From Bacillota bacterium (GTDB lineage Bacteria; Bacillota; Clostridia; Ch29): 64,000 bases of DNA. Made by a program: the position numbers and the translations under genes. Location: positions 34,607-98,606 of the forward strand of contig JAXGPT010000002.1 in the NCBI GenBank assembly GCA_040766775.1, written 5' to 3'. Positions 2,644-50,067 of the stretch are shown one piece after another (the first letter of the stretch is position 1; every line of letters begins with the position of its first letter). The notes beneath the pieces are model-generated. The model saw only the letters and a program-made list of their open reading frames with translations, had not been told where the DNA came from and made no database searches.

Positions 2644-3171
2644 ATGCGTATTATTACGAGTGGGAAAAACATGGAAATAACCGATGCCTTTAGGGACACC
2701 ATTGAACGGAAGCTGGGAAAGCTGGGAAAGTTTTTTCATAAGGACACCGAGGCCCAGGTAACGCTCAACGTTGAAAAAAACCGGCACATAATAGAGGTCA
2801 CCATCCCCTTTGACGGAGTACTGATAAGGGCGGAAGAATGCACCGACGATATGTATACGTCCATAGACAAGGCAGTGGATAAACTGGAGCGCCAGATTAG
2901 CAAACATAAAACCAAGCTGGAAAAGAGATTTCGCGGAAGCAAGATGCTCTTTGAAAACATAGAGGCTACAGGGAAAGAGGACCTGGATAGGCCGAAGGTG
3001 GTAAGGACCAAAAGATTCGCCATGAAACCCATGCCCGTAGAAGAGGCTATTCTACAAATGGAACTTTTAGGCCATAACTTCTTTGTTTTTTCAAACGGTG
3101 ATACCGAAGAGGTAAACGTTGTATATAAAAGAAAGGACGGAAATTACGGTTTGATTGAGCCCATGTTCTAA
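2644..3171 (+). CDS. hpf: Ribosome hibernation promoting factor (long HPF/YvyD/RaiA family)
   Basis: 175 aa; N-terminus MRIITSGKNMEITDAFRD matches the YvyD N-terminus; position between fliT and secA as in B. subtilis. Confidence 0.85.
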   Translation: MRIITSGKNMEITDAFRDTIERKLGKLGKFFHKDTEAQVTLNVEKNRHIIEVTIPFDGVLIRAEECTDDMYTSIDKAVDKLERQISKHKTKLEKRFRGSKMLFENIEATGKEDLDRPKVVRTKRFAMKPMPVEEAILQMELLGHNFFVFSNGDTEEVNVVYKRKDGNYGLIEPMF

Positions 3172-3189: not shown

Positions 3190-3220
3190 GGCAGTGGAAT
3201 TTATATTCCACTGCCTTTTT
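3190..3220 (+). terminator. Intrinsic terminator of hpf (also the insertion target of intron copy 1)
   Basis: 11-bp stem ggcagtggaat/attccactgcc, 4-nt loop, then TTTTT. Confidence 0.75.
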
Positions 3221-5149
3221 ATGTTCGCCCGACATGGGCAGTAACTAGGCGGTGAAAGTCCGCTATGGGCTTGGTAGTGGGAACCATTAGCTAAACAGCA
3301 AGGGTGTTCACCGTGAGGTGAAATTGAGGAAGCTGCAGGCAAAGTCCTGCACTGACGGACAGGAACTGTGACATAAGGTATACGTGGAACGGACGAGTTT
3401 GCCACCAAAACGAAGTCCAACACTACCCGAATTCCACGGTGTAAATGCAGCGGTGACATGGGATGAAAGTTACTGTTCTTAATCGGGAGGTCTGGGTTGG
3501 CAGGGGTACGTCAGGCAGGGAATGAATTTTCCTCATGATAACCCATGCAGCGATGTATGGCCGAGCCTGTCAGAAGTCAAGAAGAGGTCATAGTACCATA
3601 CCGGATATATACGGAATGGGAAGGACCGAACGGAAGGATGTTTTGGTATTGTGAAGCACACTACGAAATGCGATGAGCGCAGCCAACTTCATACTGAAGA
3701 CTTACCTGTGTGAGGATAGGTGGAACCTGAAAGAAGTATGGAGCGTAGAGCATTTCGTTTACGTCTTCCAAAGACCAAAACGATGGCAAATGAGTATGCT
3801 GGAAGCTTGCTTGATAAAATACTTCTGACCGAGACAACATGAACAAGGCATACAAGAGGGTTAAGTCAAACAAAGGCAGCCATGGAATTGATGGAATGAC
3901 AGTAGATGAACTTCTACAGTTTCTGAAAGAAAAAATGGTGAGCAAATCAGGCAGTGTATCCGAGGGTACTTACGCAAGCCAAAACCTGTGCGGCGGATAG
4001 AGATAACAAAGCTGGCGGGAAAAAGACTACTTGCATACCAACAGTAGTGGACAGAGTAAGTGCAACAGGCAATAGCCCAGGTATTAAGCCCAATCTTGGA
4101 GAAGCGTGTTCTCGGAATTGAGCTTGCGGTTCAGGCCGGGCGACGCAAAACAGGCGGTATTGAAATGCATGAATACATAGAAGCAGGCTACGACTGGGGC
4201 TGTGGATATACGGACTTTGCGAAATACTTTGATACCGTAAACCACGACAAATTGATGGGCCTAATCCATAAAACCGTTAAGGATAGGGAGTAATATCACT
4301 TATCCGCAAATTCTTCAATCAGGAGTAATGATAAATGGAGTAGTGGTGGAAACGGAAGAGGGCTGTCCGCAGGTGGCCCCTTGGCGCCCGCTGCTATCCA
4401 ATATCATGCTGAATGAACTGGATAAGGAACTAGAAAGAAGGGGGCTTAAATTTCTGCCGGTACGATGATGTAAACATATACGTCAGAAGCAGGAAGGCAG
4501 CAGAAAGGGTAATGGCCAGTGTTACACGGTTTATCGAAGACGATTTAAAACTTCTCTAAGGTAAACCGTGAAAAGAGTACTGTTGATACAGGCTATGGCG
4601 GCTGAAATTTTTAGGTTTTCCTTTTACCGTAAAGATAGTGGTATAGGGATAAGGGTGCACCCAAGGTCACTACGAAGCTTAAATCCAAGCACAAAGGAGA
4701 TAACCTCAAGGAGTAATGCTATGAGCATGGAATACAGGATATTTAAACTGAACCAGAGCATTACCGGCTGTAAACTACTTTAGCCTGGCGGACATGAAAG
4801 CAATAGCTGCTAAACTTGACGGGTGGATAAGGCGCAGGATAAGAATGTGCTATTGAAACAGTGGAAGAAAGTTAGTACAAAGCACAGAAACCTTGTAAGG
4901 TTAGGTATAGATAACTACAAGCAAGTGGCTTTAGCAGTATACAACACGAGAAAAGCTACTGGTATACAGCCATTAAAGGCTTTATCCTTATTAAATCCAT
5001 CACCAATGAATACCTAAAAAGTTTGGGTCTAAAAGTCAGTATCCGAAAGATATTCATTAGTCCATTAAATATCTCGCTGAACTGCCGTATGCCGGACGGC
5101 ACGTACTATATGGTGAGAGGACGGGGGTTAATCATCCCTCCTACTCGAT
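3221..5149 (+). mobile_element. Group II intron copy 1 (class-C-like; inserted right after a terminator); reverse-transcriptase/maturase ORF decayed
   Basis: ~1.93 kb, >90% identical to 25371-27298; group II RT motifs (MNKAYKRVKSNKGSHGIDG.., PTVVDRVVQQAIAQVLSPI..) split by many stops/frameshifts; YADD motif deleted in this copy; domain V/VI-like 3' end ...gccgtatgccggacggcacgtac...ctactcgAT. Confidence 0.8.
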
Positions 5150-19009: not shown

Positions 19010-19096
19010 AACCGCTGCTTCCGGCCCGGGAAGATGTAAGCGCTACGGAATAAAGGATGCATAATCAAGGATATTCGGACCCGGCTTCAACCGGGT

Positions 19097-20131
19097 TTGT
19101 TTAATGGGAATTACCAAGCCAATATCAATTTGCAAGGAGTGATTATTATCAAAAGGATAGCTGTAGTTACCACCGGGGGAACCATTGCCATGAAGGCGGA
19201 CCATACCGGTCTTGCCAGTCCCTCCTTAAGCGGCGATGACTTAATAGCTGCCATACCTTCGCTGAAGAAAAGGGCGGCCGTTGACGTGTTTGCTTTCTGT
19301 AATGTTCCCAGTTCATACATTACCATGGACCACCTTGTCCGGTTAAGAAATTATATTGATCAGTTGGGAGAGCAGGGTTATGCAGGAGTAGTTGTAACCC
19401 ATGGCACCGATACAATGGAGGAGACGGCATATTTCCTGGATTTAACGATGCAAAGCAGTATTCCGGTTGTGTTAACCGGTGCCCAGAGGAACCCGTCTCT
19501 GGTTAGTTCCGACGGTCCGGCAAACCTGCTGGATTCAATCCTGGTGGCGGCGGATGACAGGGCGCACGAAATGGGGGTGCTCATTGTTTTTGCTTCCGAA
19601 ATTGTTGCGGCAAGAGAGGCTACCAAGTTTCACAGGACCAGGGTGGACACCTTCAAGAGCTTGGAGTTCGGACCCATGGGGGCAGTAAACAACGACAGGG
19701 TTATATGGTGTAGGAAGCCGCAGCGGGAGCCAAGGTACATAATTGAGAAGGCTGACAAAAGGGTGGACATAGTGAACTGTTATATCGGAGCCGATTCTGC
19801 CATGATATACAGCAGCCTGGAAAAGGGTACCGAGGGTATAGTGATAGAAGCCCTGGGCGCCGGTCACGTGGCACCGGCAATGCTGGAAGGAATAAAAAGC
19901 GCCCTTGAAAAGGGCGTACCGGTGGTGCTGACCTCAAGGGTTCCCGTGGGCAGGCTGCTCACCGATACCTACGGGTACGAAGGGGGCGAGAAGCATGCCT
20001 GCAGCCTGGGGGTAATACTGGGCGAAGACCTTTCGGCATGGAAAGCGAGGATAAAGCTTATTGTACTATTATCCGCAGGCCTATCGCCCACCCAGATAAG
20101 GCGTGAATTCGAGCATAGGTTTTACGACTAG
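19097..20131 (+). CDS. ansA: L-asparaginase
   Basis: IAVVTTGGTIAM...VVTHGTDTMEETAYFL motifs; true start likely internal near 19139. Confidence 0.8.
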   Translation: MFNGNYQANINLQGVIIIKRIAVVTTGGTIAMKADHTGLASPSLSGDDLIAAIPSLKKRAAVDVFAFCNVPSSYITMDHLVRLRNYIDQLGEQGYAGVVVTHGTDTMEETAYFLDLTMQSSIPVVLTGAQRNPSLVSSDGPANLLDSILVAADDRAHEMGVLIVFASEIVAAREATKFHRTRVDTFKSLEFGPMGAVNNDRVIWCRKPQREPRYIIEKADKRVDIVNCYIGADSAMIYSSLEKGTEGIVIEALGAGHVAPAMLEGIKSALEKGVPVVLTSRVPVGRLLTDTYGYEGGEKHACSLGVILGEDLSAWKARIKLIVLLSAGLSPTQIRREFEHRFYD

Positions 20132-22036
20132 AAAGGAAGATTTTTCGATGACTTCTTCCCACTCCGTGTACAGTGAATCCAGTTTATCACGGAGGCCTTT
20201 CAGCTTTTCGTTAAGCTCTTTTATTTTACCAGGGTCAGAATACGCCTCCGGCTGGCACAGGAGATGTTCCAGCCGGGTTATTTCTTCTTCTAACTCGTCA
20301 ATCTCCTTTTCCAGCCTGTCCAGTTTAAGTTTTTCCTGTTTCCTTTTTTCCCGCTCTTCCCTTTCCTTTTTTCTTTGATGTTTCATAGCCGTTTTTGTCG
20401 GGGAGGCTGTTTCGCTGATGCTTGCTTCTTCTTCCTGCTGCTGTTTTTTCATCCGGTAATAGCTGTAGCCTCCGTGGAAAAGGTTTATACCTTCCGGGGT
20501 AAGCTCGGCTGTCTTGCTGGTAACCCGGTCAAGAAAATACCGGTCGTGGGATATTACAAGGACCGTGCCGGTATAATTGCAAAGGGCGTCCTCCAGGGCA
20601 TGCCTTGACTTAATATCAAGGTGATTTGTGGGCTCGTCCAGCAGCAGCAGGTTTGACCGGGACAGCATGAGTTTCGCCAGGGCCACCCTGCTTCTTTCGC
20701 CTCCGCTTAGGCAGTCAATTGTCTTGTACACGTCATCGCCGCTGAACAAAAAGGCTGCAAGTACATTTCTTACCTGGGTGACCGGAAGGTCCGGGCTTTG
20801 GTCCCATACCTCGTCAAGCACCGAATTGGAAAGGTTAAGGTTCTCTTGCTGCTGGTGGTAGTACTCAATATTTGTATTATGGCCCTTTATGATGCTGCCC
20901 GAATCTGGCTGCAATAAGCCGGATATTATGTTAAAAAGGGTGGTTTCCCGATCCGTTGGGGCCAATTATTCCTATCCTTTCGCCCCGATAGACCTTTAAG
21001 TTTACGCCGTAAAACAATTGGCTGCCGGGGAAGGACTTGCAAACGTTCTCCAGCGACAGTACATTCCTTCCGCTTTAGCAAGCGGCTCAAGCTTTATCGA
21101 AATTCCTTCTGTTTCATGCAGGTTGATCCGGCATCTCAATACGGGACAGCAATTTTTCCCGGCTTTTAGCCCTTTTTATTGTTTTTTCCCTGTTATATGA
21201 CTTCAGCTTTTGTATAATTTCCCGCTGTCGGTCCATTTCACTTTGCCTGTTTTTAAAGTCCCTCAGCTGCAGTTCCATCATTACCTGTTTTTGCTTAAGG
21301 AAATCGGTGTAATTGCCCCTGGAACTGGTACAGGGCTGTATCGTCCAGTTCGAATATCCCGGTGCATACCTGTCCAGGAAATACCTGTCGTGGGAAATAA
21401 CCATCACCGCGCCCTCATAGCCGACGAGAAAGTTCTCCAGCCATTCCACCGCATTTAAATCCAGGTAGTTGGTGGGCTCGTCCAGCAGCAGCAGGTGATA
21501 TTTTTTGAGCAATAGTTCCGCCAGCGCGACCCGGGTTTTTTGACCGCCGCTTAGAAGTTCAACCGGCATTTTAAACTGGGCTTCTTCAATACCTAGCCCT
21601 AAGGGCACCCCATCTGGCTTTTGTATTCATAGCCCCCTCTTTCCGCGAACTCCTCGGTAAGGTCCCCGTATTCCTTCATAAGCTGTTCCAGGTCCCTGCC
21701 GGACGCCCTGGCCATGCGGGATTCCAGTTGGGATATTCGGATTTCCATTTCCAGAAGAAATGCGAAGTTTTTAACAAGATGCTCCCACACCGTTACCCCA
21801 GGGTTAAAATGGGGATGCTGGGGCAAAAGCCCTATGGTAGTATCCGCAGCGGTGTATATGCTTCCCGAATCCGGCTGCTCCAGACCGGAGATTATCTTGA
21901 AGAGGGTTGACTTGCCTGCCCCGTTGGCCCCTACCACGCCAATCCTGTCCCCGGGATGTATTCTAAAATTAATATTATTTAATATTGATTCTACACCAAA
22001 ACTTTTTGCTGATATTATTACATGACAGCAGTGCAA
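20081..22036 (-). CDS. ABC-F family ATPase (YdiF/Uup/EttA-like), two ABC domains + C-terminal coiled coil; frameshifted in this assembly
   Basis: Three consecutive minus-strand ORFs: 21599-22045 (domain 1: GANGAGKST), 21114-21608 (LSGGQKTRVALA...LLLDEPTNYLD), 20081-20965 (domain 2: LSGGERSRVALA..LLLDEPTNHLD..ISHDRYFLD + KE-rich coiled coil); TTG start with AAGGAG RBS. Confidence 0.75.
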
Positions 22037-22162
22037 TTCTTTCACTCCTTTTACAGGGGCAGTTGTTTAGCAACTATCGACTACCAACTAAAATGATATA
22101 TATCATTTTAACAAAATGGCAACTGATAATAAAGAAAACTGGGGTAAATGACCAGATTCTTA

Positions 22163-22192
22163 TTGGTAATTATTTAACAAACTGATATAATT
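22163..22192 (+). promoter_or_regulatory. Rex operator overlapping the rex promoter
   Basis: TTGGTAATTATTTAACAA (22163-22180) matches the Rex box TTGTTAA-N4-TTAACAA in 17/18 positions; followed by extended -10 TGATATAAT (22184-22192). Confidence 0.55.
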
Positions 22193-22254
22193 TAATTGAA
22201 GACTGGAAATAGATATTCATAGCAGCGGAATACTATGGGACGAGGAGGGGTAGA

Positions 22255-22890
22255 ATGGAGAAAATGAGAAGCAATATATCCATGGCTGTAATCAGGAGAT
22301 TGCCGAAATACTATAGATACCTCAATGAGCTGATGGAAAAGGGAGTGACAAGAATATCCTCTATGGAATTCGGGAGATCCTGGGATTACCGCTTCGCAGA
22401 TAAGACAGGACCTGAACTGTTTCGGCGGTTTCGGACAGCAGGGCTATGGGTACAACGTAAAGGAGCTTGTGGATGAAATTGCCAATATACTGGGCCTTAA
22501 CAAAACCAATAACGCGATAATAGTGGGTGCGGGCAACCTAGGCCAGGCTATTGCCAACTACAGCGGGTTCCGTGGCTCCGGTTTTATATTAAAAGGCATG
22601 TTCGATATAAACCCAAGACTGGTGGGTATAAGCATCAGGGACATTAAGATAATGGATATTGACGAAATGAGCGAGTTTATTAAAAAAGCCGGATATAAAT
22701 GTTGGCATAATATGCACTCTACGAGGCGCAGGAAGCCGCCGACAGGTTGACCGGCGAAGGGATTAAAGCAATATGGAACTTTGCACCCAGCGACCTGGAC
22801 GTGCCCGAGGATGTAATAGTGGAAAACGTTCACTTAAGCGAGAGCCTCATGGTCTTGGCGTACCTTATGAATCAGAGGGAGAACATGTGA
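22255..22890 (+). CDS. rex: Redox-sensing transcriptional repressor Rex (at least 3 frameshifts)
   Basis: IRRLPKYYRYLNELMEKGVTRISS; ...ITASQIRQDLNCFGGFGQQGYGYNVKELVDEI..IVGAGNLGQAIANY (Rossmann); C-terminal ..IKAIWNFAP..VENVHLSESL in a third frame. Confidence 0.8.
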
Positions 22891-22976
22891 GATAATAAAT
22901 AACATTAACAAGCAAATCGCGGCTGCCCGGAAACGGATTCAAGGCTGCGATTCGGTTTTTCATGGAAGTGAGGTAA

Positions 22977-23795
22977 GTGCCTATGCAGGTGGTATCCTTG
23001 GTTGGGTCCAGTGGGACCGGAAAGAGCTACAGGGCATTGATAGTAGCATATGAAAACGACATCGATTACCTGATTGACGACGGGTTGTTGATAAAGGGGA
23101 ACAAGATTGTTGCCGGGACCTCCGCGAAGAAGGAGAATACCAAAATAGCCGCGGTAAGAAGGGCTCTTTTCATGGAGCCTGCGCACAGGGAAGAGGTAGT
23201 GAAAGCCATTAAGGCCCTTGACCCCGATAGGATGTTAATACTGGGCACATCCGACGAAATGGTTGATAAAATAACCAGGGTCCTAGGCCTTAGCCCGCCC
23301 CAAAAAAGGCTGTACATTGAGGATATAGCCTCAGAGGAGGAGATAGAGCTTGCCCGGCACCAGCGGCGTTCAAAGGGCAAACACGTCATACCGGTTCCTA
23401 CTTTGGAAGTCAAAAAGGACTTTTCCGGGTATTTCCTGGATACCCTTAGAATATTCACCAGGAAGAGGGACGATTCCGTTACCGTTGACGAAAAAACTGT
23501 TGTGCGGCCGACGTACAGCTATCTCGGCAAGTATACCATATACGGCAGGGCTATTATTCAAATAGCCCGGGCGGCGGGCGAGAGGATTGAGGGGATAAAA
23601 AGGATTTTCAATACCGAAGTCGCCATCCATCCCAACGGAATAGTGATAAATACCGACGTGGCGGTGGTCTACGGTACCGCTATTATGGAGAAGATACCCG
23701 CCATGAAAAATGTCATCAAATCTGAGATTGAGCACATGACATCGCTCAACGTGCTGGCCATCAACGTTACGGTAAAGAGTTTGGTTATGGAATAG
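22977..23795 (+). CDS. Two-domain protein: N-terminal P-loop NTPase (GSSGTGKS) fused to C-terminal Asp23/Gls24-like domain
   Basis: Walker A at residues 9-16; C-terminal ~90 aa (TIYGRAIIQIARAAG..VAVVYGTAIMEKIPAMKNVIKSEIEHMTSLNVLAINVTVKSL) resembles the Asp23 family. Confidence 0.55.
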   Translation: MPMQVVSLVGSSGTGKSYRALIVAYENDIDYLIDDGLLIKGNKIVAGTSAKKENTKIAAVRRALFMEPAHREEVVKAIKALDPDRMLILGTSDEMVDKITRVLGLSPPQKRLYIEDIASEEEIELARHQRRSKGKHVIPVPTLEVKKDFSGYFLDTLRIFTRKRDDSVTVDEKTVVRPTYSYLGKYTIYGRAIIQIARAAGERIEGIKRIFNTEVAIHPNGIVINTDVAVVYGTAIMEKIPAMKNVIKSEIEHMTSLNVLAINVTVKSLVME

Positions 23796-24019
23796 AAAGA
23801 ACGGGACCTGTACCGCGGGTCTTTTTTTTTAACCTACATAAAACCTACAGAGATATACTGTTTACAACTATTTTTTAAGGTTTACAATTATTTTTAATAT
23901 GTTATAATTCAAATTGGAGGACTGCCTGTTGTATAATATGGTAGTTTCCCTGAAAACTATAATAGTCAAGCGCTTTTGTTTAGTACTTATCAAAATATAA
24001 TAAGAGGAGGTCATGTGTA

Positions 24020-25271
24020 ATGGCAGAAAAAACTATGAACCCCTTTGAAATTGCCCAGAAGCAAATAAAAGCTGCATGCGACAAACTGGGCGCCGAGCCG
24101 GCTGTATACGAGATTTTGAAACAGCCCATGAAGGTTGTGGAAGTGAGCATCCCTGTGAAGATGGACAACGGCGAGGTAAAAACCTTCATAGGCTACAGGT
24201 CACAGCATAACGACGCCATTGGTCCGGCAAAGGGCGGAATAAGGTATCATCAGGACGTTAACATGGACGAAGTAAAGGCCCTGTCAATGTGGATGACATT
24301 CAAGTGCGGTGTAACGGGTCTTCCTTACGGTGGAGGCAAAGGCGGAATTGTTGTTGACCCGACCCAGCTGTCCCAAGGCGAACTCGAAAGGCTGTCCAGG
24401 GGTTACATAAGGGCCATAGCAAATTTCATCGGTGACAATAAAGATATTCCAGCCCCCGATATGGGCACCAACGCCCAAGTCATGTCCTGGATGATTGACG
24501 AACTCGTGCCGTTATAAGGGGATACAAACGAGTTTGGCGCTATAACCGGAAACCGGTGGGCTTTGGCGGCTCGCTTGCAAGGACCGAAGCGACAGGCTAT
24601 GGTATTGCCAATATGGCAAAAATGGCCGCCGACAAAGTAGGGGTGAAATTTGAAGGCGCAAGAGTAGCGGTACAGGGCTTCGGTAACGGTAGAAGCTTTA
24701 CCTGCAAATACTTAAGCGAACTTGGAGCAAGTGGTTGTATTTCGGACGTCTCCTGTGCGCTGTATAATGAGGACGGTATAGACGTAAAAGCATTGATGGA
24801 ATATGCAAAGGGCAATAAATTCCTAATAACCGGTTTCCCGGGCGCCATGAGCTTCCAGGGAAGATATACTGGGCATGGAAGTGGACATCCTGCTCCCTGC
24901 GCTATGGAAAACCAACTGACCGCCGAAACCGCAGGCAATGTCAAGGCTAAACTGGTGAAGCTGGAGAGCCAAACGGCCCGACCACACCCGAAGGGGACGA
25001 GGTCTTTAAACAAAGAGGAATACCGGTGTTCCCGGATATACTGTGCAATTCCGGAGGAGTTGTAGTATCCTACTTCGAATGGGTACAGAACCTGCAGAAC
25101 TACTACTGGACCTTCGAAGAGGTACAGGAAAAACAGATCATAAAGATGAAAGAGGCCTTCGACGCCATATGGGCGCTTAGGGAAGAGAAAAACGTCGATA
25201 TGCGAACCGCAGCTTACATGATTGCCATCAAGAGGGTTGCGTATGCAATGAAGCTGCGCGGCTGGATCTAG
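24020..25271 (+). CDS. gdhA: NAD(P)-dependent glutamate dehydrogenase (at least 3 frameshifts)
   Basis: [25 protein letters not shown], ..[14 protein letters not shown].., ..VAVQGFGN.., C-terminal [20 protein letters not shown] spread over three frames. Confidence 0.8.
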
Positions 25272-25342
25272 AGAAGGACAGTTAAGGGACAAGGGGACAA
25301 GGGACGGTTCTTTGTCCCAAAAAGCAGCGTAAAAACGGGGCG

Positions 25343-25370
25343 GGGCAGACCGATCGGTCTGCCCTATTTT
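25343..25370 (+). terminator. Intrinsic terminator of gdh (insertion target of intron copy 2)
   Basis: gggcagaccgatcggtctgccc hairpin followed by TATTTT. Confidence 0.7.
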
Positions 25371-27298
25371 ATGTTCGCCTGACATGGGCAGTAACTAGGC
25401 GGTGAAAGTCCGCTATGGGCTTGGTAGTGGGAACCATTAGCTAAACAGCAAGGGTGTTCACCGTGAGGTGAAATCTGGAGGAAGCTGCGGCAGGCAAAAA
25501 AAGTCCCGGCACCCCTGACGACAGGAACTGCATACAAGGCATACGTGGAACGGACGAGTTTGCATAACAAAACGAAGTCCAACACTACCCGAATTCCACG
25601 GTGTAAATGCAGCGGTGACATGGGATGAAAGTTACTGTTCTTAATCGGGAGGTCTGGCAGGTACGTCAGGCAGGGAATGAATTTTCCCCATGATAACCAT
25701 GCAGCGATGTATGGCTGATTGTCAGAAGTCAGCAGAGGTCATAGTACCATACCGGATATATACGGAATGGGAAGGACCGAACGGAAGGATGTTTTGCATT
25801 GTGAAGCACACTACGAAATGCGATGAGCGCAGCCAACTTCATACTGAAGACTACCTGTGTGAGGATAGGGTGGAACCCGAAAGAAGCATGGGATAAAGAG
25901 AGTATTTCGTTTACGTCTTCCAAAGACCAAAACGATGGCAATGAGTATGCCGGAAGCTTGCCGATAAAATACTTGACCGAGACAACATGAACAAGGCATA
26001 CAAGAGGGTTAAGTCAAACAAAGGCAGCCATGGAATTGATGGAACGACAGTAGATGAACTTCTACAGTTTCTGAAAGAAAAATGGTGAGCAAATCAGCAG
26101 CAGCAGGTATCCGGGAGAGGGTACTTACAAGCCAAAACCCGTGCGGCGGATAGAGATACCAAAGCCGGGCGGCGGCAAAAGACTACTTGGCATACCAACA
26201 GTAGTGGACAGAGAGTGCAACAGGCAATAGCCCAGGTATTAAGCCCAATCTTTGAGAAGCAGTTCTCGGAATTGAGCTAGTGGGTTCAGGCCGGGAAGGG
26301 ACGCAAAACAGGCGGTATTGAAATGCAAGGAATACAGAAGCAGGCTACGACTAAGGATATTGACCTTGCGAAATACTTTTGATACCGTAAACCACGACAA
26401 ATTGATGGGCCTAATCCATAAAACCGTTAAGGATAGGGGGAGTAATATCACTTATCCGCAAATTCCTTCAATCAGGAGTAATGATAAATGAGTAGTGGTG
26501 GAAACGGAAGAGGGCTGTCCGCAGGGCATTCCCTTAAGCCCGCTGCTATCCAATATCATGCTGAATGAACTGGATAAGGAACTAGAAAGAAGGGGGCTTA
26601 AATTCTGCCGGTACGCCGATGATGTAAACATATACGTCAGAAGCAGGAAGGCAGCAGAAAGGGTAATGGGCCAGTGTTACACGGTTTATCGAAGACGATT
26701 TAAAAACTTAAGGTAAACCGTGAAAAGAGCAATTGCTGATAGGCCATGGCGGCTGAAATTTTTAGGTTTCTCCTTTTACCGTAAAGATAGTGGTATAGGG
26801 ATAAGGGTGCACCCAAGGTCACTAGCGAAGTTTAAATCCAAGCTAAAGGAGATAACCTCAAGGAGGCAATGCTATGAGCATGGAATACAGGATATTTAAA
26901 CTGAACCAGAGCATTACCGGCTGGGTAAAGTCACTTTAGCCTGGCGGACATGAAAGCAATAGCTGCTAAACTTGACGGGTGGATAAGGCGCAGGATAAGA
27001 ATGTGCTACTGGAAACAGTGGAAGAAAGTTAGTACAAAGCAACAGAAACCTTGTAAGGTTAGGTATAGACAACTACAAGGCATGGCAGTATGCCAACACG
27101 AGGAAAAGCTTACTGGCACACACAATAGCTTTATCCTGATAAATCCATCACCAATGAATACCTAAAAAGTTTGGGTCTAAAGTCAGTATCCGAAAGATAT
27201 TCATTAGTCCATTAATATCTTTTCGAACCGCCGTATGCCGGACGGCACGTACGGTGGTGTGAGAGTGACGGTGGGGTTAATCATCCCTCCTACTCGAT
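25371..27298 (+). mobile_element. Group II intron copy 2 (class-C-like; inserted right after a terminator); RT ORF decayed but keeps YADD
   Basis: Same 5' end as copy 1 directly after the T-tract; RT pieces include ..EGCPQGIPLSPLLSNIMLNELDKELERRGLKFCRYADDVNIYV..; multiple frameshifts; 3' end ...ctactcgAT. Confidence 0.8.
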
Positions 27299-28312
27299 TT
27301 CCTCAACCTTTACTTCGTATGTTTTACCGTTTATTTTAAACCTTAATAGTCTTGTGGAAACCACCTCGCTGGACACACAGGTCTTTTTGATTGCGGATAT
27401 TTTATCCTCCATCTCGCGTATCAGCTGCTGTGCCTCGGGTACCGTCACCTTTACAAACCTTATTTTGTCCCCGGGTTTTGCCTGGGCAATCCTGGGCAGG
27501 TCCGCCCAAATGACGTTTTGCAATCTTGGTATAACCCCCGGTGGTTTGCCGATCGGCCAGCATAATTATTGGCTGCCCGTGGCCCGGCACCTGGACAGCA
27601 CCCATTGCTATTCCGTCCGAAATGATATCCCCGCCCTTGACGTGCTCGATATTTTGCCCTTTAACCTATATCCCATCCTGTCACATTCATTGGTTACCCT
27701 CGTAATAATCAGAGAGGAAGGTATTTATACCATCAATGGTAAAACAGTCCTCCTGGGGGCCTAAAGTAACCCTTAGTTCCAGTGTGGTGGAATATTCGGG
27801 AACAAATTCCGCAGGCGCCTACCCCCAGCCTGGCTGGACTTCGATAGATGCCAACCTCAAGTATGTCCCCCGCTTTTAAAGGTCTGCCCTTAAAACCGCC
27901 GATTTTTCCCCTGGTATAAGTGGATTTGCTTCCCATAACCTCGGGAACTTTTATGCCGCCGGAAAAGGCTATATAGCTCCTGCACCCCGACCAGACCCCT
28001 GAAAGGAAAGTTTGATCCCTTATTTACAATAATGCTTTCCCACATGGGTACCGCTCCGTCGTTTATTACCGGGGACAGGTTGCCGCCGGTGATGGCTATG
28101 GCCATCTGGTCCATAAATTCAATTTGGGGGCCCATCATGGTGGCTTCCAAAACTGCTTCCAGTTCGTCATTCCCCACCAGTATGTTGCTTACCCTGTGGG
28201 AGAAGGTATCCATTACACCGGAAACGGGAACACCATACTGCTGATACCCGTATCTTCCGCTGTCCTCAATCAGCGTTAAAAGGCCCGGGTTTATTATTTT
28301 TACGTTTCCCAT
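27290..28312 (-). CDS. pxpC: 5-oxoprolinase subunit C (PxpC/KipA family), frameshifted
   Basis: N-terminus MGNVKIINPGLLTLIEDSGRYGYQQYGVPVSG..; GQPIIMLADRQTTGGYTKIA and VIWADLPRIAQAKPGDKIRFVKV in other frames; stop codon lies inside the intron 3' end. Confidence 0.7.
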
Positions 28313-28314
28313 TA

Positions 28315-29100
28315 TTGGCCGCCCCCTTTCCCGGTATGGATGGTATACTTATAGGTCCCCTTTTCCACTTCTTCCTTTATCCCGTCATATTCCTCCCGGT
28401 CAATCCTTTTAAACCGGATGTAGTTTCCTGCTTTCAGCAGTATTGATCTTTCCATTGGGCTTCAGAAAAGCTTCAGCGGCGTTCACCAATAATCTGCCAC
28501 CCCCCGGGGCTTTCTATCGGATAAACCCCTTGTCTGGGTCGCGGCAATTCCTACCGACCCCGCGATTATTTTGGTTCTCGGGGGTGCTGGCTCTGGGCGT
28601 AGCAATCCTTTCATCCATGCCGCCCAGGTAGGGGAATCCCGGCGTGAATCCCAGCATATAAATCCATGAAGTCCCTTTGAGGTGTGGATTTCTACCACCT
28701 GCTCAACCGTTAGTCCATTGTGTTTTGCAACGTTTTCTATGTCCGGCCCGAATTCACCGCCGTAGATTGTTGGTATCTCGTAGGTGCAGGGTGATGGCAG
28801 GTCTATGTTTTCCAGCTGTTCTTCCAGCGACTTAAGCCTGTCCAGCTTTTTTTTTTTGCATCGTACCCGATTTTCATTGGGTCGCGCACCATCAGTGACC
28901 TGTGGTAGGTACCGTTTCGGTTATGCCTTCAATTTTGCTGTTTTCTATGGCAATTCCCATGGACCGTATCTTTTTATTGATTTCCTCCGAGATGGAATTT
29001 CCAAACTCCATTACCAGCGCCCTATCCCCGGCTGCCAGGTATTTAGCCTGCTTATACAATTTGCTCCCCCTGACTTATCCCTTATATGTTGGTAAGGCAT
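28315..29100 (-). CDS. pxpB: 5-oxoprolinase subunit B (PxpB/KipI family), frameshifted; 5' limit approximate
   Basis: C-terminus ..LLKAGNYIRFKRIDREEYDGIKEEV..GGQ* ends 3 nt before the pxpC ATG; upstream part broken over frames. Confidence 0.45.
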
Positions 29101-29173
29101 CCGGCCGTATCCATCCTGCCGGTGCTTCCGGATGCCTTACCAGTACGAGAAATCCGGCAGATGTATACCGGGC

Positions 29174-30391
29174 TTACCTTGGTATAAGTTGTGCCATATT
29201 CCGAAGGGACAGTATTCCCGAATACCCGGCCACCAGCACTATTATTACTCCAAATACCAGCAGCCATGTCGGATGATGGTAGTCCCCGACAATATCCTTT
29301 CTCCTGGAAGCCAGCAGCATGGTCCCCAGGGTTACCGGCAGGATAAGCCCGTTAAGGGAACCCGCCAGGATAAGCAGCTTGGCCGGGCTGCCCACCAGCA
29401 CCATTATAAGCGTGGAGGCTATAATAAAGCCGCAAATAACGTATTTTTGATTTTTTTCTATAAATGTGTTCAACGTTTTAAGGAAGGAGACTGATGTAAA
29501 AGCCGCTCCTACCACCGAGGTGATACCCGCCGCCCAAAGGACTATGCCGAAGAACCTGTATCCTAAGTTCCCGGCACCGTGCTGGAAAGCCGAAGCTGCC
29601 GGGTTGGACGGGTCAAGGGCCGCTCCCTTGGAGACAACCCCCAATATGGCCAGGAACAACAGGATACGCATGATGGTCGCAATAAGGATGCCCGTTATTG
29701 AACTCCTGGTGATCTGGTCCAAGTTTTCCTTTCCGGATATGCCGGCGTCAAGCAACCTGTGGCCGCCGGAAAAGGTTATGTAACCTCCCACAGTTCCACC
29801 CAACAGCGTGATGATAGGGAAAAGCAGCGCACCCGGGTTTTCGGGGGCGACGCTTCTTAAAAGGGCTTCCCCTGCCGGGGGTTTGGTTGTGATTGTAACA
29901 TAGCCCACTATTACAATCATAAGCACACCGAGTATCTTGGTGAACTTATCCATAACTGGGCCTGCATCCTTGGACAGGAAAATCAGGATACCTATTACAC
30001 CACAAGCCAGGGCTGCGAAATCCGTATTTATCCCCAAAAGCGCATTCAGACCAAGGGAAGCTCCGCCGATGTTTCCTATGTTAAATGCCAGTCCGCCCAA
30101 GGCCACAAGAATTGCCACAAAATATCCAAGGCCGGGCAGCACTTTGTTTGCAATATCCTGGCCTCTTAATCCTGAAATGCCTATAACTCTCCATACGTTC
30201 ATCTGAGCGCCCAGGGCGAGAAGGATGGAAAACAGTATTACAAAGGCAAAATCTGCCCTATACTGCTCGGTGAAAGCTGCGGTCTGGGTTAAAAAACCCG
30301 GTCCTATCGCGGAAGTGGCCATCAGAAAGGCTGCTCCAAGCAGCGCGCTGGCCTTTTTCTTAAGGTCCGATTCCTTTTTGTTAGAACCCAT
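29174..30391 (-). CDS. NRAMP-like membrane transporter (YcsG-like) in the pxp operon
   Basis: 405 aa, ~11 TM segments; position matches B. subtilis ycsF-ycsG-kipI-kipA. Confidence 0.65.
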   Translation of the reverse strand: MGSNKKESDLKKKASALLGAAFLMATSAIGPGFLTQTAAFTEQYRADFAFVILFSILLALGAQMNVWRVIGISGLRGQDIANKVLPGLGYFVAILVALGGLAFNIGNIGGASLGLNALLGINTDFAALACGVIGILIFLSKDAGPVMDKFTKILGVLMIVIVGYVTITTKPPAGEALLRSVAPENPGALLFPIITLLGGTVGGYITFSGGHRLLDAGISGKENLDQITRSSITGILIATIMRILLFLAILGVVSKGAALDPSNPAASAFQHGAGNLGYRFFGIVLWAAGITSVVGAAFTSVSFLKTLNTFIEKNQKYVICGFIIASTLIMVLVGSPAKLLILAGSLNGLILPVTLGTMLLASRRKDIVGDYHHPTWLLVFGVIIVLVAGYSGILSLRNMAQLIPR

Positions 30392-30407
30392 TTACTATCC
30401 CTCCATT

Positions 30408-31187
30408 CTACTTAATAAAATTTGAAACGGCGGTTACTTCTACACCTTCCTGTTCCAGCCTGGCTCTTATTCTTTTTGTGAACTCCACCGCTTCCGGATT
30501 ATCGCCGTGAACACAGATTGAATCTGCCTTGATTTCGATATCCTCGCCGTTCACGGCCTGTACCTTTCCTTCCTTTACCATGCGTACCACCCTGGAGATG
30601 GCAAGGTCTGCATCGTGAATCACCGCCCCTGGGAGCTTCCTGGATACCAGCGTCCCGTCGGGGTTGTAGGCCCGGTCGGCAAACACTTCGTTGGCTGTCT
30701 TAAGCCCCATTTCCTTCCCGGCATTGATCATTTCGCTGTTGGCCAACCCCATCAGAATGATGTTTCGGTCCACTTCACGGATTGCCTCGGCTATGGCCGC
30801 CGCCAGCTTGGCATCCTTTGCCGCCATGTTGTACAATGCACCGTGGGCCTTAACGTGCTGAATGGCGGCTCCGCTTGCCTTTGCGAAGGCCATTAGGGCT
30901 CCCAACTGGTATTTGACGTATGCCTTTACCTCCTCCGGTGTGGCGGCCAGATTCCTCCTGCCAAAACCCAAAAGGTCCGGGAATCCGGGATGGGCTCCTA
31001 TGGCCGTTCCTTCACGGAGTGCAGCTTTTACCGTCCTGTCCATTACCAGCGGGTCCCCTGCATGCCATCCGCAGGCGATGTTTACCGATGTAACGTGTTT
31101 TATAACCTGGTCGTCCATTCCCAAAGTGTAACTGCCAAAACTCTCTCCAAGGTCGCTGTTTAGGTCCACTCTAAAAATGCTTATCAC
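30408..31187 (-). CDS. pxpA: 5-oxoprolinase subunit A (PxpA, LamB/YcsF family)
   Basis: [11 protein letters not shown]...[11 protein letters not shown]...[15 protein letters not shown] motifs. Confidence 0.85.
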
Positions 31188-31512
31188 CTCCTTTTAGAAA
31201 ATTTTGAAAGCCCGGTTTCTATGAGTATTGAGTATTATGAAGGGAGAACAAAATACCGGGAACTCTCCTTGTCTATAATATGCGCAAAAGAAATGTTAAT
31301 ATATTCAATTCTAGAATTATTTATGATAATTTTGACATTAATTATCTAATTTGTTAAATATACTCACCCCTTGACAATTCCCAACGTGATGGTATTATAT
31401 GTATCCAAGGATTGGTTGCGGGCAGGGCCGGGCAAGGGACGGTCACTTGGGCGAGAGACGGTCATCTGGCCGGCGGATAAATCAGTTGCATTTTTCAAAG
31501 GAGGATTGAAAA

Positions 31513-32344
31513 ATGAATGTGGCTGTGCTGCAGTTGAGGTAAATGCTGAAGAGACGAAGGATGAGCGTATAACCTATGTTGTAGACATTTTGAGGGCATG
31601 TACCGGGGATACAGGTGTCCCCACTGTATTAAGCGTTCCTGAAATATGGGGCACGGGTTTCTTTAATTTTGACAGTCATCAAAAAAGAGGCTGAAGAGAT
31701 ACAGGGACAGACATATTCAGCCTTTGCTCCCATGGCGGAAAAACTGTGGGTGTTAGCATCCTGACCAGAAGCCCGTGGAGCGGGAGGGCAGCACCTTACA
31801 ACACCTCCCTTCTTATTGACCCGGAAGGAAATATAGCGGCCCGGTACAGGAAAATTCACCTGTTCGGCTATAAGTCCAGGGAGACCCCGAAATACTTACA
31901 CCGGGTAAGGACATAACTGTGGTTGATACAGAGCTGGGCGTATGGGCGGAACCCACCTGCTACGACCCAGGTTCCCCGAACTGTTCCGAGCCATGGATAA
32001 AGGCGCCTAGGTTTTCTTGGTGGTAGCGGCATGGGTTGCTACCAGGTTGACCACTGGTCCTTACTCAATAAGGCAAGGGCGATTGAAAACCAGTGTTACC
32101 TTATATCCTGCAACTGTGCCGGTATCCACGGTGGAGTGACCTTCGGAGGACGCAGCATGGTTGTGGACCCCTGGGGTGTTGCCGTGGCCTCGGGGGGAGA
32201 CAGGGAAACGGTGGTCTGGGCAAGTATTGACCTTGAAGAGGTGGAAAAACCGCAGCGCCTTTCCGGCGCTTGTGGACCGGGTTCTTTAACCCGGATTACT
32301 TCCCGCTTGACATTTGGAGCAGCGGTGGTATTATATATGTGACA
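31513..32344 (+). pseudogene. Carbon-nitrogen hydrolase (nitrilase/omega-amidase family), about 6 frameshifts
   Basis: MNVAVLQL.., ..VLSVPEIWGTGF.., ..IHLFGYKSRE.., ..RFPELFRAMDKGA.VFLVVAAW.., ..LLNKARAIENQCYLISCNCAG..GGRSMVVDPWG in different frames; strong TTGACA-16-TATTAT promoter at 31371-31398. Confidence 0.6.
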
Positions 32345-32486
32345 AGACAGGTGTATATACATTATACTGCCATGAATCTTATACATTAATTAGCGGGGAG
32401 AGGTTGAATTGGAAAAAATAGCAGGTTTTTTAAAAAGAAAACATCGAAATTTCACTGCATAGGACGGTATTCAAGCCCTTGGGGCT

Positions 32487-33415
32487 ATGGCCCAGGGGCT
32501 GTTTGCAACCCTTATTATAGGACTTATACTGAAGGTTATTGGAGAAAACTTAAATATTCCTTTTCTTTACGAAGTGGTATATCCCGCGGCACAGCAAATG
32601 ACCGGCCCGGCAATAGCGGTGGCGGTGGCCTACGGACTGCAGGCCCCGCCCCTTGTACTGTTCGCCTCCACCGTCACCGGAATGGTGGAACCATTTGGAG
32701 GCCCGGTGGGGGCCTTGTGGCGGCGGTAATAGGTGCGGAATTTGCAAATGGTATCAAAGGAGACCAAGGTGGATATACCGGTGACGACGGCGGTCACCAT
32801 AGTAACGGGAGTACTGGCGGGCATGCTGGTGGTCCCGGTATCATCCCTTATGACCGGTCTAGGGCGGTGGATAATGTGGGCTACCGAGCTGCACCGATAC
32901 CAATGGGTATTTTCGTCTCGGTGCTGATGGGAATGGTTCTTACGCCGCCCAAGCAAGGTGCGGCTCTTGCAATAATGCTGGAGTTGGGCGGGCTTGCCGC
33001 CGGGGCGGCTACCGTTGGCTGTAGCACCCAGATGGTAGGTTTCGCGGTGGCCAGCTACAGGGGAAATGGGTGGGGAGGGCTGATTTCATTACAGGGTCTC
33101 GGAACGTCTATGCTGCAGGGTGCCCAATATTGTGAAAAATCCCCGGATATGGATTCCCCCACTCTGGCCTCGGCGATTATAGGTCCCTTTGCCACCACGC
33201 TGTTTAGGATGGAAAACATACCCATGGAGCGGGATGGGTACCAGCGGCCTGGTGGGTCAGTTCGGGACGGTGGCGGCTATGGGGACAAGCGCTGCCGTTT
33301 TTGGAAAGATGCTGCTTTTGCATATCGCCGCACCGGCGGTATTGACCCCGTTATTTCCGAATACATGAGAAAAATTGGCTGGATAAAAGCCGGCGATATG
33401 AAGTTACCCGAGTGA
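32487..33415 (+). CDS. Integral membrane protein, unidentified family, frameshifted
   Basis: Hydrophobic ORFs in two frames (32487-32729, 32717-33415). Confidence 0.35.
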
Positions 33416-33503
33416 AGTGGGATGTGGGAAGTGGGATGTGGAAAATATGATGTGAGATGCGATAGTATATGTCCTGTCACCTGAACTCAAGGAGGGCCGT
33501 CAT

Positions 33504-34391
33504 TGGACTATAGAATTACAGAAAACGGAATACTTGTCAAGAACGCAAGGGACTTTGAGCCGGAGCATATATTCGAGTTGTGGTCATGCTTCCGCTGGAA
33601 CAAAATGCCAGACGGAAGCTACAGGGTAAATGCCGGCGGAAGAATCCTATGCGGAAAAAAGGGGCGGCGATATACTCCTTGACGGGACCGATGAGAAAGA
33701 GTTCACTAGGAGTACTGGGGCCCGGTACTTTGACCTGGAGAGGGACTACGGTCAAATCAAACAGGCATTATCCCGCGACCCGGTGCTTAAAAGGGCGGTG
33801 AAATTGGAAGCGGAATACGCATCCTCAATCAGGATACCTGGGAGACGCTTATTTCTTATAATCTCTGCCAACAACAGGATCCCGAGGATAAAGACAACCA
33901 TAGAAAGGTTGTGCCGCTGTTTTGGCAGTCAAGGAGAAGCAAAGGGGGAAACCTTTTTCGACTTTCCCACCCCGCAGCGCCTGTCGAGGCTGGACGAGCA
34001 GGATATACGCTCCTGCGGCTGCGGTTTTAGGGCAAGGTACGTGCTCCAAGCTGCAAGAATGGTGGAGGAAGGAAGGGTGAACCTTGCATCACTGGAGCGT
34101 ATGTCCACCTCGGAGGCGAGGTCGGTGCTCTTAAGTTTCCCCGGTGTAGGGCCCAAGGTTGCGGACTGCATCCTGCTCTTTTCCATGGCCCGGTTCGAAG
34201 TTTTCCCGGTGGACGTATGGGTAAAAAGGGTGATGGAGCATTATTATTTGAAAGGGGATGCTCCCCTGGCGGAGGTCAGGCGGTATGCCGAGGAAAGGTT
34301 CGGCTCCCTTGCCGGGGCGGCGCAGCAGTACCTGTTCTATTATGCGAGGAGCACCATGGGCAGGGGACCCCGGATAGTAATGGAATGTTGA
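33504..34391 (+). CDS. ogg: 8-oxoguanine DNA glycosylase (HhH-GPD family), frameshifted at the 5' end
   Basis: N-terminal ..CGQCFRWNKMPDGSYRV.. in one frame; HhH-GPD ..LLSFPGVGPKVADCILLFSMARFEVFPVDVWVKRVM.. in the 253-aa ORF. Confidence 0.7.
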
Positions 34392-34490
34392 AAAGTCGCA
34401 TAATTAATGGATAGAAAGAGAAATAGCGGCACATTCTGCTGTCACTTGGTATTTTAACCGTTTTTGGCTCAATTTTAGCCGGAACAGGGT

Positions 34491-34558
34491 TTGATTACTC
34501 TGCCGGCTTTTAATATTATATAAACTGTAATTAGCACTCGCCAATGGCGAGTGCTAAC
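34491..34558 (+). promoter_or_regulatory. groESL promoter plus CIRCE (HrcA operator)
   Basis: TTGATT-17-TATTAT, then perfect CIRCE TTAGCACTC-gccaatggc-GAGTGCTAA at 34532-34558. Confidence 0.9.
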
Positions 34559-34601
34559 AAACGCCAAACCAAACCATACATATAGGATAGGAGGGTAAAA
34601 T

Positions 34602-34886
34602 ATGAACATCAAACCACTTGGAGACAGGGTAGTAGTAAGGGTGCTGGAAAAAGAGGAAACCACCAAGAGTGGGATTGTGCTGCCCGAAGCCGCGAAGGAA
34701 AAACCCCAGGAAGGTGAAGTGCTGGCGGTGGGAAGCGGAGAATTGATAGAGGGCAAGAGGATTCCCCTGGAAGTCAAGGTTGGGGACAGGGTTATTTATT
34801 CAAAGTATGCGGGCACCGAAGTCAAAATGGACGACCAGGAATACCTTATCCTAAGGCAGAGCGATATACTTGCCATTATTGAATAG
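34602..34886 (+). CDS. groES: Co-chaperonin GroES
   Basis: 94 aa, canonical GroES. Confidence 0.95.
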
Positions 34887-34908
34887 GCAAAACCAATAAA
34901 AGGAGTGA

Positions 34909-36537
<1,629 letters not shown>

Positions 36538-49569: not shown

Positions 49570-50067
49570 ATGCCAAAGGTTGCGGTTGTAATGGGAAGCG
49601 ATTCCGACCTTCCGGTGCTGGAAAAGGCTATCGACCTGCTGGCGGATTTTGGTATCCAGAGGGAGCTAAGGGTTATATCCGCCCACAGGACCCCGGATGC
49701 GGCGGTGAAGTTTGCCAAGGGAGCGCAGCGGTCGGGAGTGGAGCTAATAATTGCGGCCGCCGGAAAGGCCGCTCATCTTCCCGGGGTGCTGGCATCAATG
49801 ACAACCATTCCTGTTATTGGAGTGCCGGTTAAGTCGTCCTTCATGGACGGGCTGGATTCGCTTCTTTCCATGGTGCAGATGCCCAGCGGCGTACCGGTGG
49901 CTACGGTGGGCATAAACGCCGCCGAGAACGCCGCGCTGCTGGCGGTGCAAATGCTTGCGCTGAAGCACCCCGAGCTGGAAGAAAAACTGGCAAAACATAG
50001 GGCTGAAATGGCGGATGCGGTAAAGGAAAAGGATGCAAAAATCAGCGGTCAAATGGGAGGTAGATAA
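49570..50067 (+). CDS. purE: N5-carboxyaminoimidazole ribonucleotide mutase
   Basis: Canonical PurE (..GSDSDLPV..AHRTPD..). Confidence 0.9.
   Translation: MPKVAVVMGSDSDLPVLEKAIDLLADFGIQRELRVISAHRTPDAAVKFAKGAQRSGVELIIAAAGKAAHLPGVLASMTTIPVIGVPVKSSFMDGLDSLLSMVQMPSGVPVATVGINAAENAALLAVQMLALKHPELEEKLAKHRAEMADAVKEKDAKISGQMGGR

Follow-up and report, generated by a model that had tools for sequence, protein, structure and literature searches.

Here, we found that a group II intron, which we assign to bacterial class C (IIC), lies directly behind the terminator common to two convergent genes, gdh and a PxpC-family gene, within a 64,000-nucleotide window (the whole stretch of DNA analysed). We consider it highly probable that the intron inserted at this terminator, that it donates the end of pxpC and that the frameshifts in its sequence are assembly errors. 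The intron is of an ordinary, known kind and the new end of pxpC is a neat side effect; the main value of the analysis lies in correcting the apparent pseudogene status of both intron copies in the window (Table 1). In addition, the site is a clean case of a class C intron at a bidirectional terminator, with empty as well as occupied alleles, and it qualifies the textbook view that class C introns never touch coding sequence, as the last codons of a convergent gene are overlapped and a stop is donated.

Table 1. Features of the two intron copies and of the gdh/pxpC locus (window coordinates).
Feature	Position	Strand	Details
Terminator hairpin 5' of copy 1	3190..3215	+	11-bp stem, then TTTTTAT; after ORF 2644..3171
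Group II intron copy 1, assigned to class C	3223..5149	+	1927 nt in window; noisier than copy 2
gdh (glutamate dehydrogenase), upstream gene	24020..25271	+	ORFs 24020..24517, 24556..25065, 25026..25271
Intrinsic terminator hairpin of convergent gdh (+) and pxpC (-)	25342..25365		10-bp stem, 7 GC pairs, then ATTTTAT
T-rich tail of terminator, end of 5' exon (ATTTTAT)	25366..25372	+	contains short IBS1
Group II intron copy 2, assigned to class C (IIC)	25373..27298	+	Rfam matches, L001 empty site, intact copies L081 and L091, 12 3' junctions
Ribozyme domain 1-3 segments	25457..25777	+	RF02001 at 25457..25639, 110.5 bits; RF01998 at 25693..25777, 61.9 bits
RT/maturase reading frame in domain 4	25801..27215	+	stitched translation; 22 frame-shifting indels in window
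Domain 5	27227..27258	+	RF00029 alignment and clean-copy fold; CGC triad 27229-27231 replaces AGC; distal stem shortened
Domain 6 and intron 3' end (...CCUACUCGAU)	27260..27298	+	RF00029 end at exactly 27298; clean-copy fold
PxpC-family gene (CT_A_B carboxyltransferase domain)	27290..28312	-	ORF fragments in window; intact 343 aa in clean assemblies
Intron-derived pxpC end, ATC GAG TAG (Ile, Glu, stop)	27290..27298	-	direct reading

The identity of the intron is far beyond chance. The Rfam models of domains 1 to 4 match at E-values of 9e-22 and 1e-08, and RF02001 and RF01998 score above their gathering scores in both window copies, while RF00029, which describes domains 5 and 6, matches 27226..27298 with 43 bits (gathering score, 40) in a run limited to this region, the match being absent from the whole-window Rfam run at gathering threshold. 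A clean copy folds into domains 5 and 6 (z = -4.3) with a single bulged A at position -7, which corresponds to a branch-point A at 27292, 7 nt from the 3' splice site. Copy 2 begins 7 nt past the gdh terminator hairpin, as copy 1 also begins 7 nt past a hairpin, and its refined ends run from GTTCG... at 25373 to ...CTACTCGAT at 27298, giving 1926 nt in the window versus 1913 nt in error-free copies. A preliminary description of this DNA had already placed a second intron copy after the gdh terminator and the copy is indeed there, in a span (25343-27300) that was slightly too wide on both sides, since 25343 falls in the terminator hairpin and 27300 includes two nucleotides of 3' exon. On sequence grounds, Rfam, the 12 insertion sites and the empty site of a related genome establish 27298 as the 3' boundary; with the intron removed at 25372/27299, the exon junction is predicted to read ...TATTTTAT joined to TTCCTC....

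Every class test that could be run pointed to class C. Introns of this class are marked by a CGC triad, a domain 5 distal stem that is 2 bp shorter and a conserved AGGAA bulge in the epsilon-prime region (PMC1702495). Here, domain 5 reads ACCGCCGUAUGCC-GGAC-GGCACGUACGGUGGU, its CGC aligning to the consensus AGC, with four distal stem/loop positions deleted compared to RF00029; the AGGAA bulge is found at 25479-25483, where AUCUGGAGGAAG (25473-25484) aligns to UCUGAAGGAA of RF02001, an unpaired stretch. All five distinct 5' exons carry a hairpin followed by a T-rich run, which ends in TAT in four of them, and in each of the five the terminator hairpin stands where IBS2 would be. In class C, one IBS3-EBS3 pairing is expected to recognise the 3' exon, and EBS1 to be a 3-4 nt element of domain 1. 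The first base of the 3' exon is T at 12 of 12 sites, as expected with a fixed EBS3. By eye, GUAAA near 25603 and AUAA near 25694 are candidates for EBS1, neither of which is preferred.

The intron-encoded protein agrees with this assignment. Its Pfam domains are RVT_1 and GIIM only, with no endonuclease domain, and it matches TIGR04416 with 441.7 bits. The best relatives of solved structure are the GsI-IIC RT (3.5e-145) and, at 2.2e-139, a group II intron RT/maturase of 427 aa (7uim, PDB 7UIM), which we take to be the E. rectale IIC intron protein, and these matches are about 90-100 orders of magnitude better than those to LtrA or the 6me0 maturase reverse transcriptase. These relatives, together with the domain content, indicate that the protein belongs to class C. 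The stitched translation of copy 2 is 98% identical to the intact 469-aa protein P0001, and identity to the nearest named entries of the homologue table is 73-78%; we regard the intron sequence as a distinct lineage. The YADD motif, described earlier as kept in copy 2, lies at 26612-26623, inside ORF 26495..26716.

What did the site look like before insertion? In L001, a related metagenome-assembled genome (MAG; about 90% nucleotide identity), no break separates pxpC from gdh, and the sequence there is GAA CTA AAA TAG GGCAGGCC (TAG, then GGCAGG), so that the protein ends in ..VEELK*, and none of CTACTCGAT is present. The same site is occupied in the same-strain short-read contigs L083, L084, L085 and L087. 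Conversely, L001 has an intron after the groEL terminator, a place that is empty in the window, so that related genomes differ in the presence of the intron at two sites, an indirect sign of recent mobility. In L084 the interior of the intron at the gdh/pxpC site is N-masked, and its length is 1913 nt if the mask keeps length. An apparent rearrangement after pxpC in L083 (GCA_900198705.1) was rejected: the different genes there reflect a 100-N scaffold gap inside the intron. In the clean sequence of L084, the hairpin stands between an A-tract and a T-tract and thus can work in both directions. Read on the minus strand, the 5'-exon tail was formerly the last two pxpC codons (ATA AAA), and the TAG stop behind them extended into the hairpin. 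The gdh orthologue of L001 is intact (417 aa) and matches glutamate dehydrogenase models, and the Pfam domain ELFV_dehydrog is recorded on gdh of L084.

The convergent gene matches PF02626 (2.2e-100) and scores above the cut-off of TIGR00724 (327 bits versus 230); the NCBIfam PxpC equivalog NF045499 was not reached (241.6 bits versus a cut-off of 500), and 'pxpC' is therefore used as a family-level name only. In L083-L088 the gene order is LamB_YcsF (pxpA), Nramp, CT_C_D (pxpB) and CT_A_B (pxpC). On the minus strand, 27301..27290 reads GAA ATC GAG TAG (E, I, E, stop), as the preliminary description had stated, and with the 3' boundary at 27298 the intron gives the last nine bases of the gene, i.e. 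two codons and the stop, whose T is the complement of the branch-point A. In L083, L084, L085 and L087 pxpC encodes 343 aa and ends in ...VKVEEIE*, followed by GAGGGG... of the antisense intron. The suggestion that the insertion reshaped the C-terminus is thus borne out by the intron-free orthologue of L001, in which the TAG lies at the foot of the hairpin. The end is now ..VEEIE* versus ..VEEIK* predicted with the intron removed, the same length with one K-to-E change. Among about 30 orthologues the tail is VEE[ILV], after which comes either a single variable residue or nothing more. The change is probably neutral, as VEE[I/L] is kept and the altered residue sits at a naturally variable position, and the PxpC protein is very likely unharmed by the insertion. 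We also considered that the tail ..KINGKTYEVKVEE might be the start of a biotinyl-carrier-like domain, as in urea carboxylase, cut by the intron; this was rejected, since VEE[ILV]x is where the roughly 30 orthologues end as well.

For the observed boundaries, class features, empty and occupied alleles and C-terminal sequences, we propose a route that is taken from the published behaviour of class C introns. The intron would have retrotransposed into the DNA stem-loop of the terminator common to gdh and the PxpC-family gene, in the sense orientation of gdh and 7 nt past the hairpin. As the native pxpC stop overlapped the foot of this hairpin, the insertion point came to lie two codons before the end of pxpC. 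Being antisense to pxpC, the intron cannot be spliced out of the pxpC mRNA; translation enters the antisense intron for 9 nt and halts at a TAG complementary to the branch-site CUA of domain 6. Transcripts of pxpC would presumably now read antisense through the intron before they meet the old terminator.

Two other readings of the pxpC end have to be weighed. It could be that the intron ends upstream of 27290, that ..VEEIE* is native and that the common 3' bases are target site, a reading to which one might be drawn by the identity between the copies, which continues 2 nt past the actual intron end (TT at 27299-27300, 3' exon common to both sites), and by one distant orthologue, L033, which ends in ...VREIE*. 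The preliminary description had raised a shorter boundary itself and named an intron-free pxpC ending in ..VEEIE as decisive for it. The empty site of L001 ends in ..VEELK* instead and refutes this reading; moreover, ...CTACTCGAT stands ahead of 12 unrelated 3' flanks, RF00029 requires these bases for domain 6 and the branch site, and the fold puts the bulged A at -7. We give a shorter intron practically no credence, and of the earlier suggestion only the 2-nt correction (27298 versus 27300) stands, with two codons and the stop staying inside the intron. It also seems improbable, if somewhat less so, that the insertion inactivated pxpC by altering its C-terminus or removing its terminator. About 1.9 kb of antisense intron does separate the gene from its terminator, no convincing minus-strand terminator was found inside the intron (only weak 5-bp stems), and pxpC is fragmented in the window. 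However, this fragmentation is noise: the gene is intact in four independent short-read assemblies carrying the intron, which argues that it is maintained, and the sole change to the protein concerns its last residue.

The remaining alternative is that both copies are dead, their frames lost to real mutations after insertion, and that they decayed independently, as had been described. At first sight the window speaks for it. Aligned over about 1.93 kb, the two copies have a mean column identity of 93% and are separated by numerous short indels; compared to an intact reference copy, copy 2 shows 34 indel events, of which 22 lie in the ORF and all 22 shift the frame, and copy 1 shows 46, with 33 frame-shifting indels in its ORF at positions unlike those of copy 2. 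(The counts come from nucleotide alignment to the intact copy; tblastn with P0001 was of no use for this, as its alignments ran on across the stops.) In the window sequence of copy 1, YADD is without its A. However, in the window 1-2 nt indels at like density break gdh, rex, ABC-F, pxpB, pxpC and groEL; L001 has intact versions of all six, and so do L083-L088 where they cover these genes. Against the same-strain Illumina contig L084 the differences are patchy, a pattern foreign to natural divergence: the window is identical over multi-kb stretches, with zero differences in several 500-nt bins, and other bins hold 6-15 indels per 500 nt and 3-19 mismatches. Homopolymers contain 43 of the 62 single-base indels. 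Clean copies, one at the copy-1 site of a related contig (L091) and one elsewhere (L081), are 1913 nt long, their 469-aa ORF is open, and 18 substitutions but no indels separate the two (99% identity); the P0001 cluster has 147 member sequences. We therefore hold decay to be very unlikely, and the indels of both window copies are best read as assembly error. The copies are multiply frameshifted as they stand in the window, as reported for copy 2, but their indels say nothing on the history of the two copies, and separate decay cannot be read from the pairwise alignment. Most probably, the real copies are intact and have moved recently; for the gdh/pxpC site, intactness is judged from the length in L084 and the clean copies at other sites. 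By extension, pseudogene calls anywhere in the window are suspect, as it contains patches of uncorrected indel error.

Is the rewriting of convergent gene ends a recurrent consequence of such insertions? At three or four of the 12 sites of this lineage a convergent ORF is clipped; besides pxpC this concerns two sites with a ferritin-like gene and one with a LysM-like gene, where the stop straddles the junction. Each of the three frames of the antisense strand meets a stop no later than 8 codons into the intron 3' end (a TAG lies across from the branch site, and a TGA and a TAA follow in domain 6), so that a clipped convergent ORF gains at most a few residues. We nevertheless think it rather unlikely that class C insertion at bidirectional terminators amounts to a recurrent, tolerated rewriting of convergent 3' ends. 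The transcript of a convergent gene would then have to cross the whole intron in antisense, and this could, in turn, throttle the expression of the intron-encoded protein and mobility. If selection shaped either feature, the antisense stops or the antisense transcription, this would constitute a new layer of host-intron accommodation. A literature search for class C introns clipping convergent genes returned nothing relevant, which is a weak negative.

Among known systems, the intron resembles B.h.I1 of Bacillus halodurans and other class C introns found after intrinsic terminators (Toor et al. 2006, PMC1702495; Zimmerly and Semper 2015, PMC4424553). It has in common with them a small ribozyme with the CGC triad, shortened domain 5 and AGGAA bulge, a target made of a short IBS1 with a terminator hairpin replacing IBS2, a sense-oriented position behind the terminator of a gene, an RT and maturase protein without endonuclease domain, and several copies per genome. 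Unlike these introns, it has inserted within the final codons of a convergent ORF, for which its antisense strand gives the new stop, an overlap seen here and at two or three further sites of this lineage. The encoded protein aligns over nearly its full length (residues 52-466) with the GsI-IIC RT (Geobacillus stearothermophilus, PDB 6AR1) and with 7UIM and has the same architecture of RT-finger/palm, thumb (X) and DNA-binding regions, with no HNH domain; in contrast to these, the predicted ORF has about 45 more N-terminal residues (469 versus 427-428 aa), which may come from an upstream GTG start call. With the IIC-attC introns of integrons it shares the class and a target that is a DNA stem-loop rather than a long homing site (PMC4424553), whereas the five readable 5' exons are all terminators, with hairpin and T-run, and not attC sites.

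A group II intron is matched by Rfam on the + strand between gdh (+) and the convergent pxpC (−), and its domains, together with those of the second copy in the window (copy 1, 3223..5149), are listed in the table. The RF00029 match came from a search restricted to the intron region and ends in ...CUACUCGAU. The copy at gdh/pxpC (copy 2) and copy 1 show a mean column identity of 93% with numerous small indels, and the sequence common to both runs from TTTTAT/GTTCGCC up to CTCGAT/TT (slashes mark junctions).

Features of the intron sites and their surroundings (window coordinates unless stated)
Feature	Coordinates	Strand	Score	Remark
D1-D4 Rfam match, copy 2	25457..25639	+	110.5 bits	
D1-D4 Rfam match, copy 2	25693..25777	+	61.9 bits	
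D1-D4 equivalent Rfam matches, copy 1	3307..3626			
RF00029 (D5-D6)	27226..27298		43 bits (gathering score 40)	end-to-end match
Strong hairpin before copy 1	3190-3215			T-run TTTTTAT; intron 7 nt further on
Strong hairpin before copy 2	25342-25365			T-run ATTTTAT; intron 7 nt further on
groEL-terminator intron site, L001	1-863	−		occupied
groEL-terminator intron site, window	36538-36575			empty
raiA RNA motif	2013-2225		182 bits	upstream of 175-aa ORF 2644-3171
Purine riboswitch aptamer RF00167	49361-49461		83.8 bits	upstream of ORF 49570..50067
Nramp-family transporter gene	29174-30391	−		between pxpA and pxpB

Four lines of evidence agree on the boundaries. RF00029 stops at 27298, and the fold of an error-free copy shows D5 followed by D6, whose single bulged A lies 7 nt before the end. 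Together with loci found before, a metagenome scan with a 51-nt D5-D6 word brought the number of different 3' junctions to 12; each reads ...CTACTCGAT/ and continues into unrelated sequence whose first base is always T. The five different 5' junctions all consist of a hairpin, a T-rich run and then /GTTCGCC. Finally, the related genome L001 (MAG SMAG_U9083, ~90% nucleotide identity) has an empty site, GTA GAG GAA CTA AAA TAG GGCAGGCCGATCGGCCTGCCCC, with an unbroken alignment from pxpC to gdh that joins window positions 27299 and 25372-25376. The junction has a 2-nt AT ambiguity, which leaves the result for the pxpC end unaffected; 25373 and 27298 were chosen because of the group II rules (GUNYG-like 5' start, 3' AY end, branch A at −7). 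The preliminary description, which placed an intron at 25343-27300, was thus right about its presence, but 25343 is the hairpin start and the intron spans 25373..27298.

The minus strand at 27301..27290 reads GAA ATC GAG TAG, and the ORF at 27290..27523 (−) ends in ...YEVKVEEIE and stop. This bears out the earlier claim that the 3' end of the intron gives pxpC its last codons: pxpC owes to the intron its final two sense codons, ATC GAG, as well as the TAG stop at 27292-27290, whose T lies opposite the branch-point A (27292). In L001, pxpC is intact (343 aa) and ends in ..VEELK, with a stop codon extending into the hairpin. Deletion of 25373..27298 from the window yields GAA ATA AAA TAG GGCAGACC..., that is ..VEEIK, one synonymous-class change from the L001 end. 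The proposed reshaping of the C-terminus therefore holds in a refined form, IK to IE before the stop; length and conserved motif are unaltered, and only the final K becomes E. About 30 orthologues with such a tail read ...NGxxYxVxVEE[I/L/V], after which comes either one variable residue (K, R, G, Q, M, I, N) or nothing further, and one among them ends in ...VREIE. We infer that the exchange is neutral.

Noise in the window does not account for the ..VEEIE end. Four short-read contigs (L083, L084, L085 and L087), whose encoded PxpA is 100% identical to that of the window, carry the same one: in all four the called pxpC is intact (343 aa), ends in ...VKVEEIE and is followed by the intron in antisense. 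In L084, from the same strain, the whole intron lies between pxpC and gdh with the junctions of the window; Ns mask the interior, and the whole element measures 1913 nt provided that masking has kept the length. L083 (GCA_900198705.1) has a 100-N scaffold gap at 10041-10140, 143 nt into the intron, beyond which lie unrelated genes (a RecA_N gene and, by reading of the sequence, phage-like content); evidently this adjacency is not real and the short-read scaffolder broke at the intron repeat. The gene scores above the cut-offs of CT_A_B and TIGR00724 and forms a cluster with genes of the LamB_YcsF and CT_C_D families; the NCBIfam PxpC equivalog cut-off is not reached by the pxpC of the window lineage, and on these matches the name PxpC-like is valid at the family level. 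The Nramp gene, present in the window and all related contigs, is an unusual insertion within the pxpABC gene order.

Overlap with a convergent ORF is not unique to pxpC. At another intron site (L082), a ferritin-like convergent gene (1869-2102, −; ...EEVEEIIEALK..) reads 19 nt into the antisense 3' end and then stops, and the same kind of gene in L096 (FZPS01000172.1, same assembly as L083) reads 23 nt into the intron before its stop. Both are further convergent ORF tails rewritten by this intron lineage. In L089, the TAA stop of a LysM-like convergent ORF (...QIGQVICVPGSQSEND) straddles the intron-exon junction and survives whether the site is occupied or empty, since T is the last base of the 5' exon as well as of the intron. 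Read in antisense, the 3' end of the intron closes each of the three frames within 8 codons; one of the stops, TAG, is dictated by the conserved branch-site CUA, its complement. A literature search found no paper on class C (IIC) introns clipping convergent genes, which is a weak negative.

Have the two copies decayed separately, as their independent indels had suggested? Frameshifts in the window extend well past the introns: they also split gdh, rex, an ABC-F gene, pxpB, pxpC and groEL, each of which is intact in L001 and, where covered, in L083-L088, contigs with the same gene cluster. Compared with L084, the window shows zero differences in some stretches (e.g. 29500-31000 and 34000-35500) and 6-15 indels plus 3-19 mismatches per 500 nt in others (24500-25400, 27500-29500 and 31000-34000), with 43 of 62 single-base indels located in homopolymers; the comparison with L001 has the same patchiness. 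Across 18500-37200, stretches identical to independent short-read contigs alternate with indel patches, which fragment other genes besides those named. Such interleaving of perfect identity with dense 1-2 nt indels points to uncorrected assembly error and not to evolution. Against an intact copy, copy 2 has 34 indel events and copy 1 has 46, a density as elsewhere in the noisy patches. Short-read intron copies are exactly 1913 nt long, have an open 469-aa ORF and differ mutually by 18 substitutions and 0 indels; the clean copy in L091 occupies, in a related strain, the same site as copy 1. With housekeeping genes broken alike and short-read copies intact, intron decay was rejected as an assembly artefact. 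That the copies differ by independent indels stands as an observation on this sequence file and gives no information on their origin. Likewise, the A missing from the YADD motif of copy 1 is one more assembly error, and all pseudogenes or frameshifts reported from this window should be regarded with suspicion. The intron also occurs elsewhere (L092, 195-1986) as a copy of only 1792 nt, ~121 nt below the 1913-nt form; that copy, too, follows a hairpin, GGGAGCCAGCCC..GGGTTGGCTCCC TTATTAT.

Intron presence is polymorphic between the window and L001 in both directions: the gdh site is occupied in the window and empty in L001, whereas at groEL L001 carries the intron directly after the terminator (CTTCTTTTT/GTTCG) and the window terminator is empty. 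Between sites, error-free copies share 99% identity, and mobility in this lineage looks recent. Going by the published behaviour of class C, the RNP would recognise a DNA hairpin plus a few bases and then reverse-splice into the target; the inserted intron would be copied from a replication-fork primer, because the intron-encoded protein (IEP) has no endonuclease. Copy 1 is hosted by the terminator of ORF 2644-3171, perhaps a ribosome hibernation factor, a guess from the raiA association.

The intron has all testable features that define class C (PMC1702495, PMC4424553): the CGC triad and a shortened D5 (RF00029 alignment and clean-copy fold), an AGGAA bulge (25479-25483), and a terminator stem-loop at the place of IBS2 with a short T-rich IBS1, together with the protein features given below. 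EBS1 and EBS3 were sought in the intron RNA and none was located. The IEP has only the domains RVT_1 and GIIM; stitched together, the window copies translate into a protein 98% identical to the intact P0001 (469 aa), which belongs to a 90% cluster of 147 members. Among solved structures, the best relatives of the IEP are the GsI-IIC RT (3.5e-145) and, at 2.2e-139, 7uim, the group II intron RT/maturase of the E. rectale IIC intron; LtrA and the 6me0 maturase are far behind. The intron belongs to a well-known type: it is an ordinary class C intron that is probably active.
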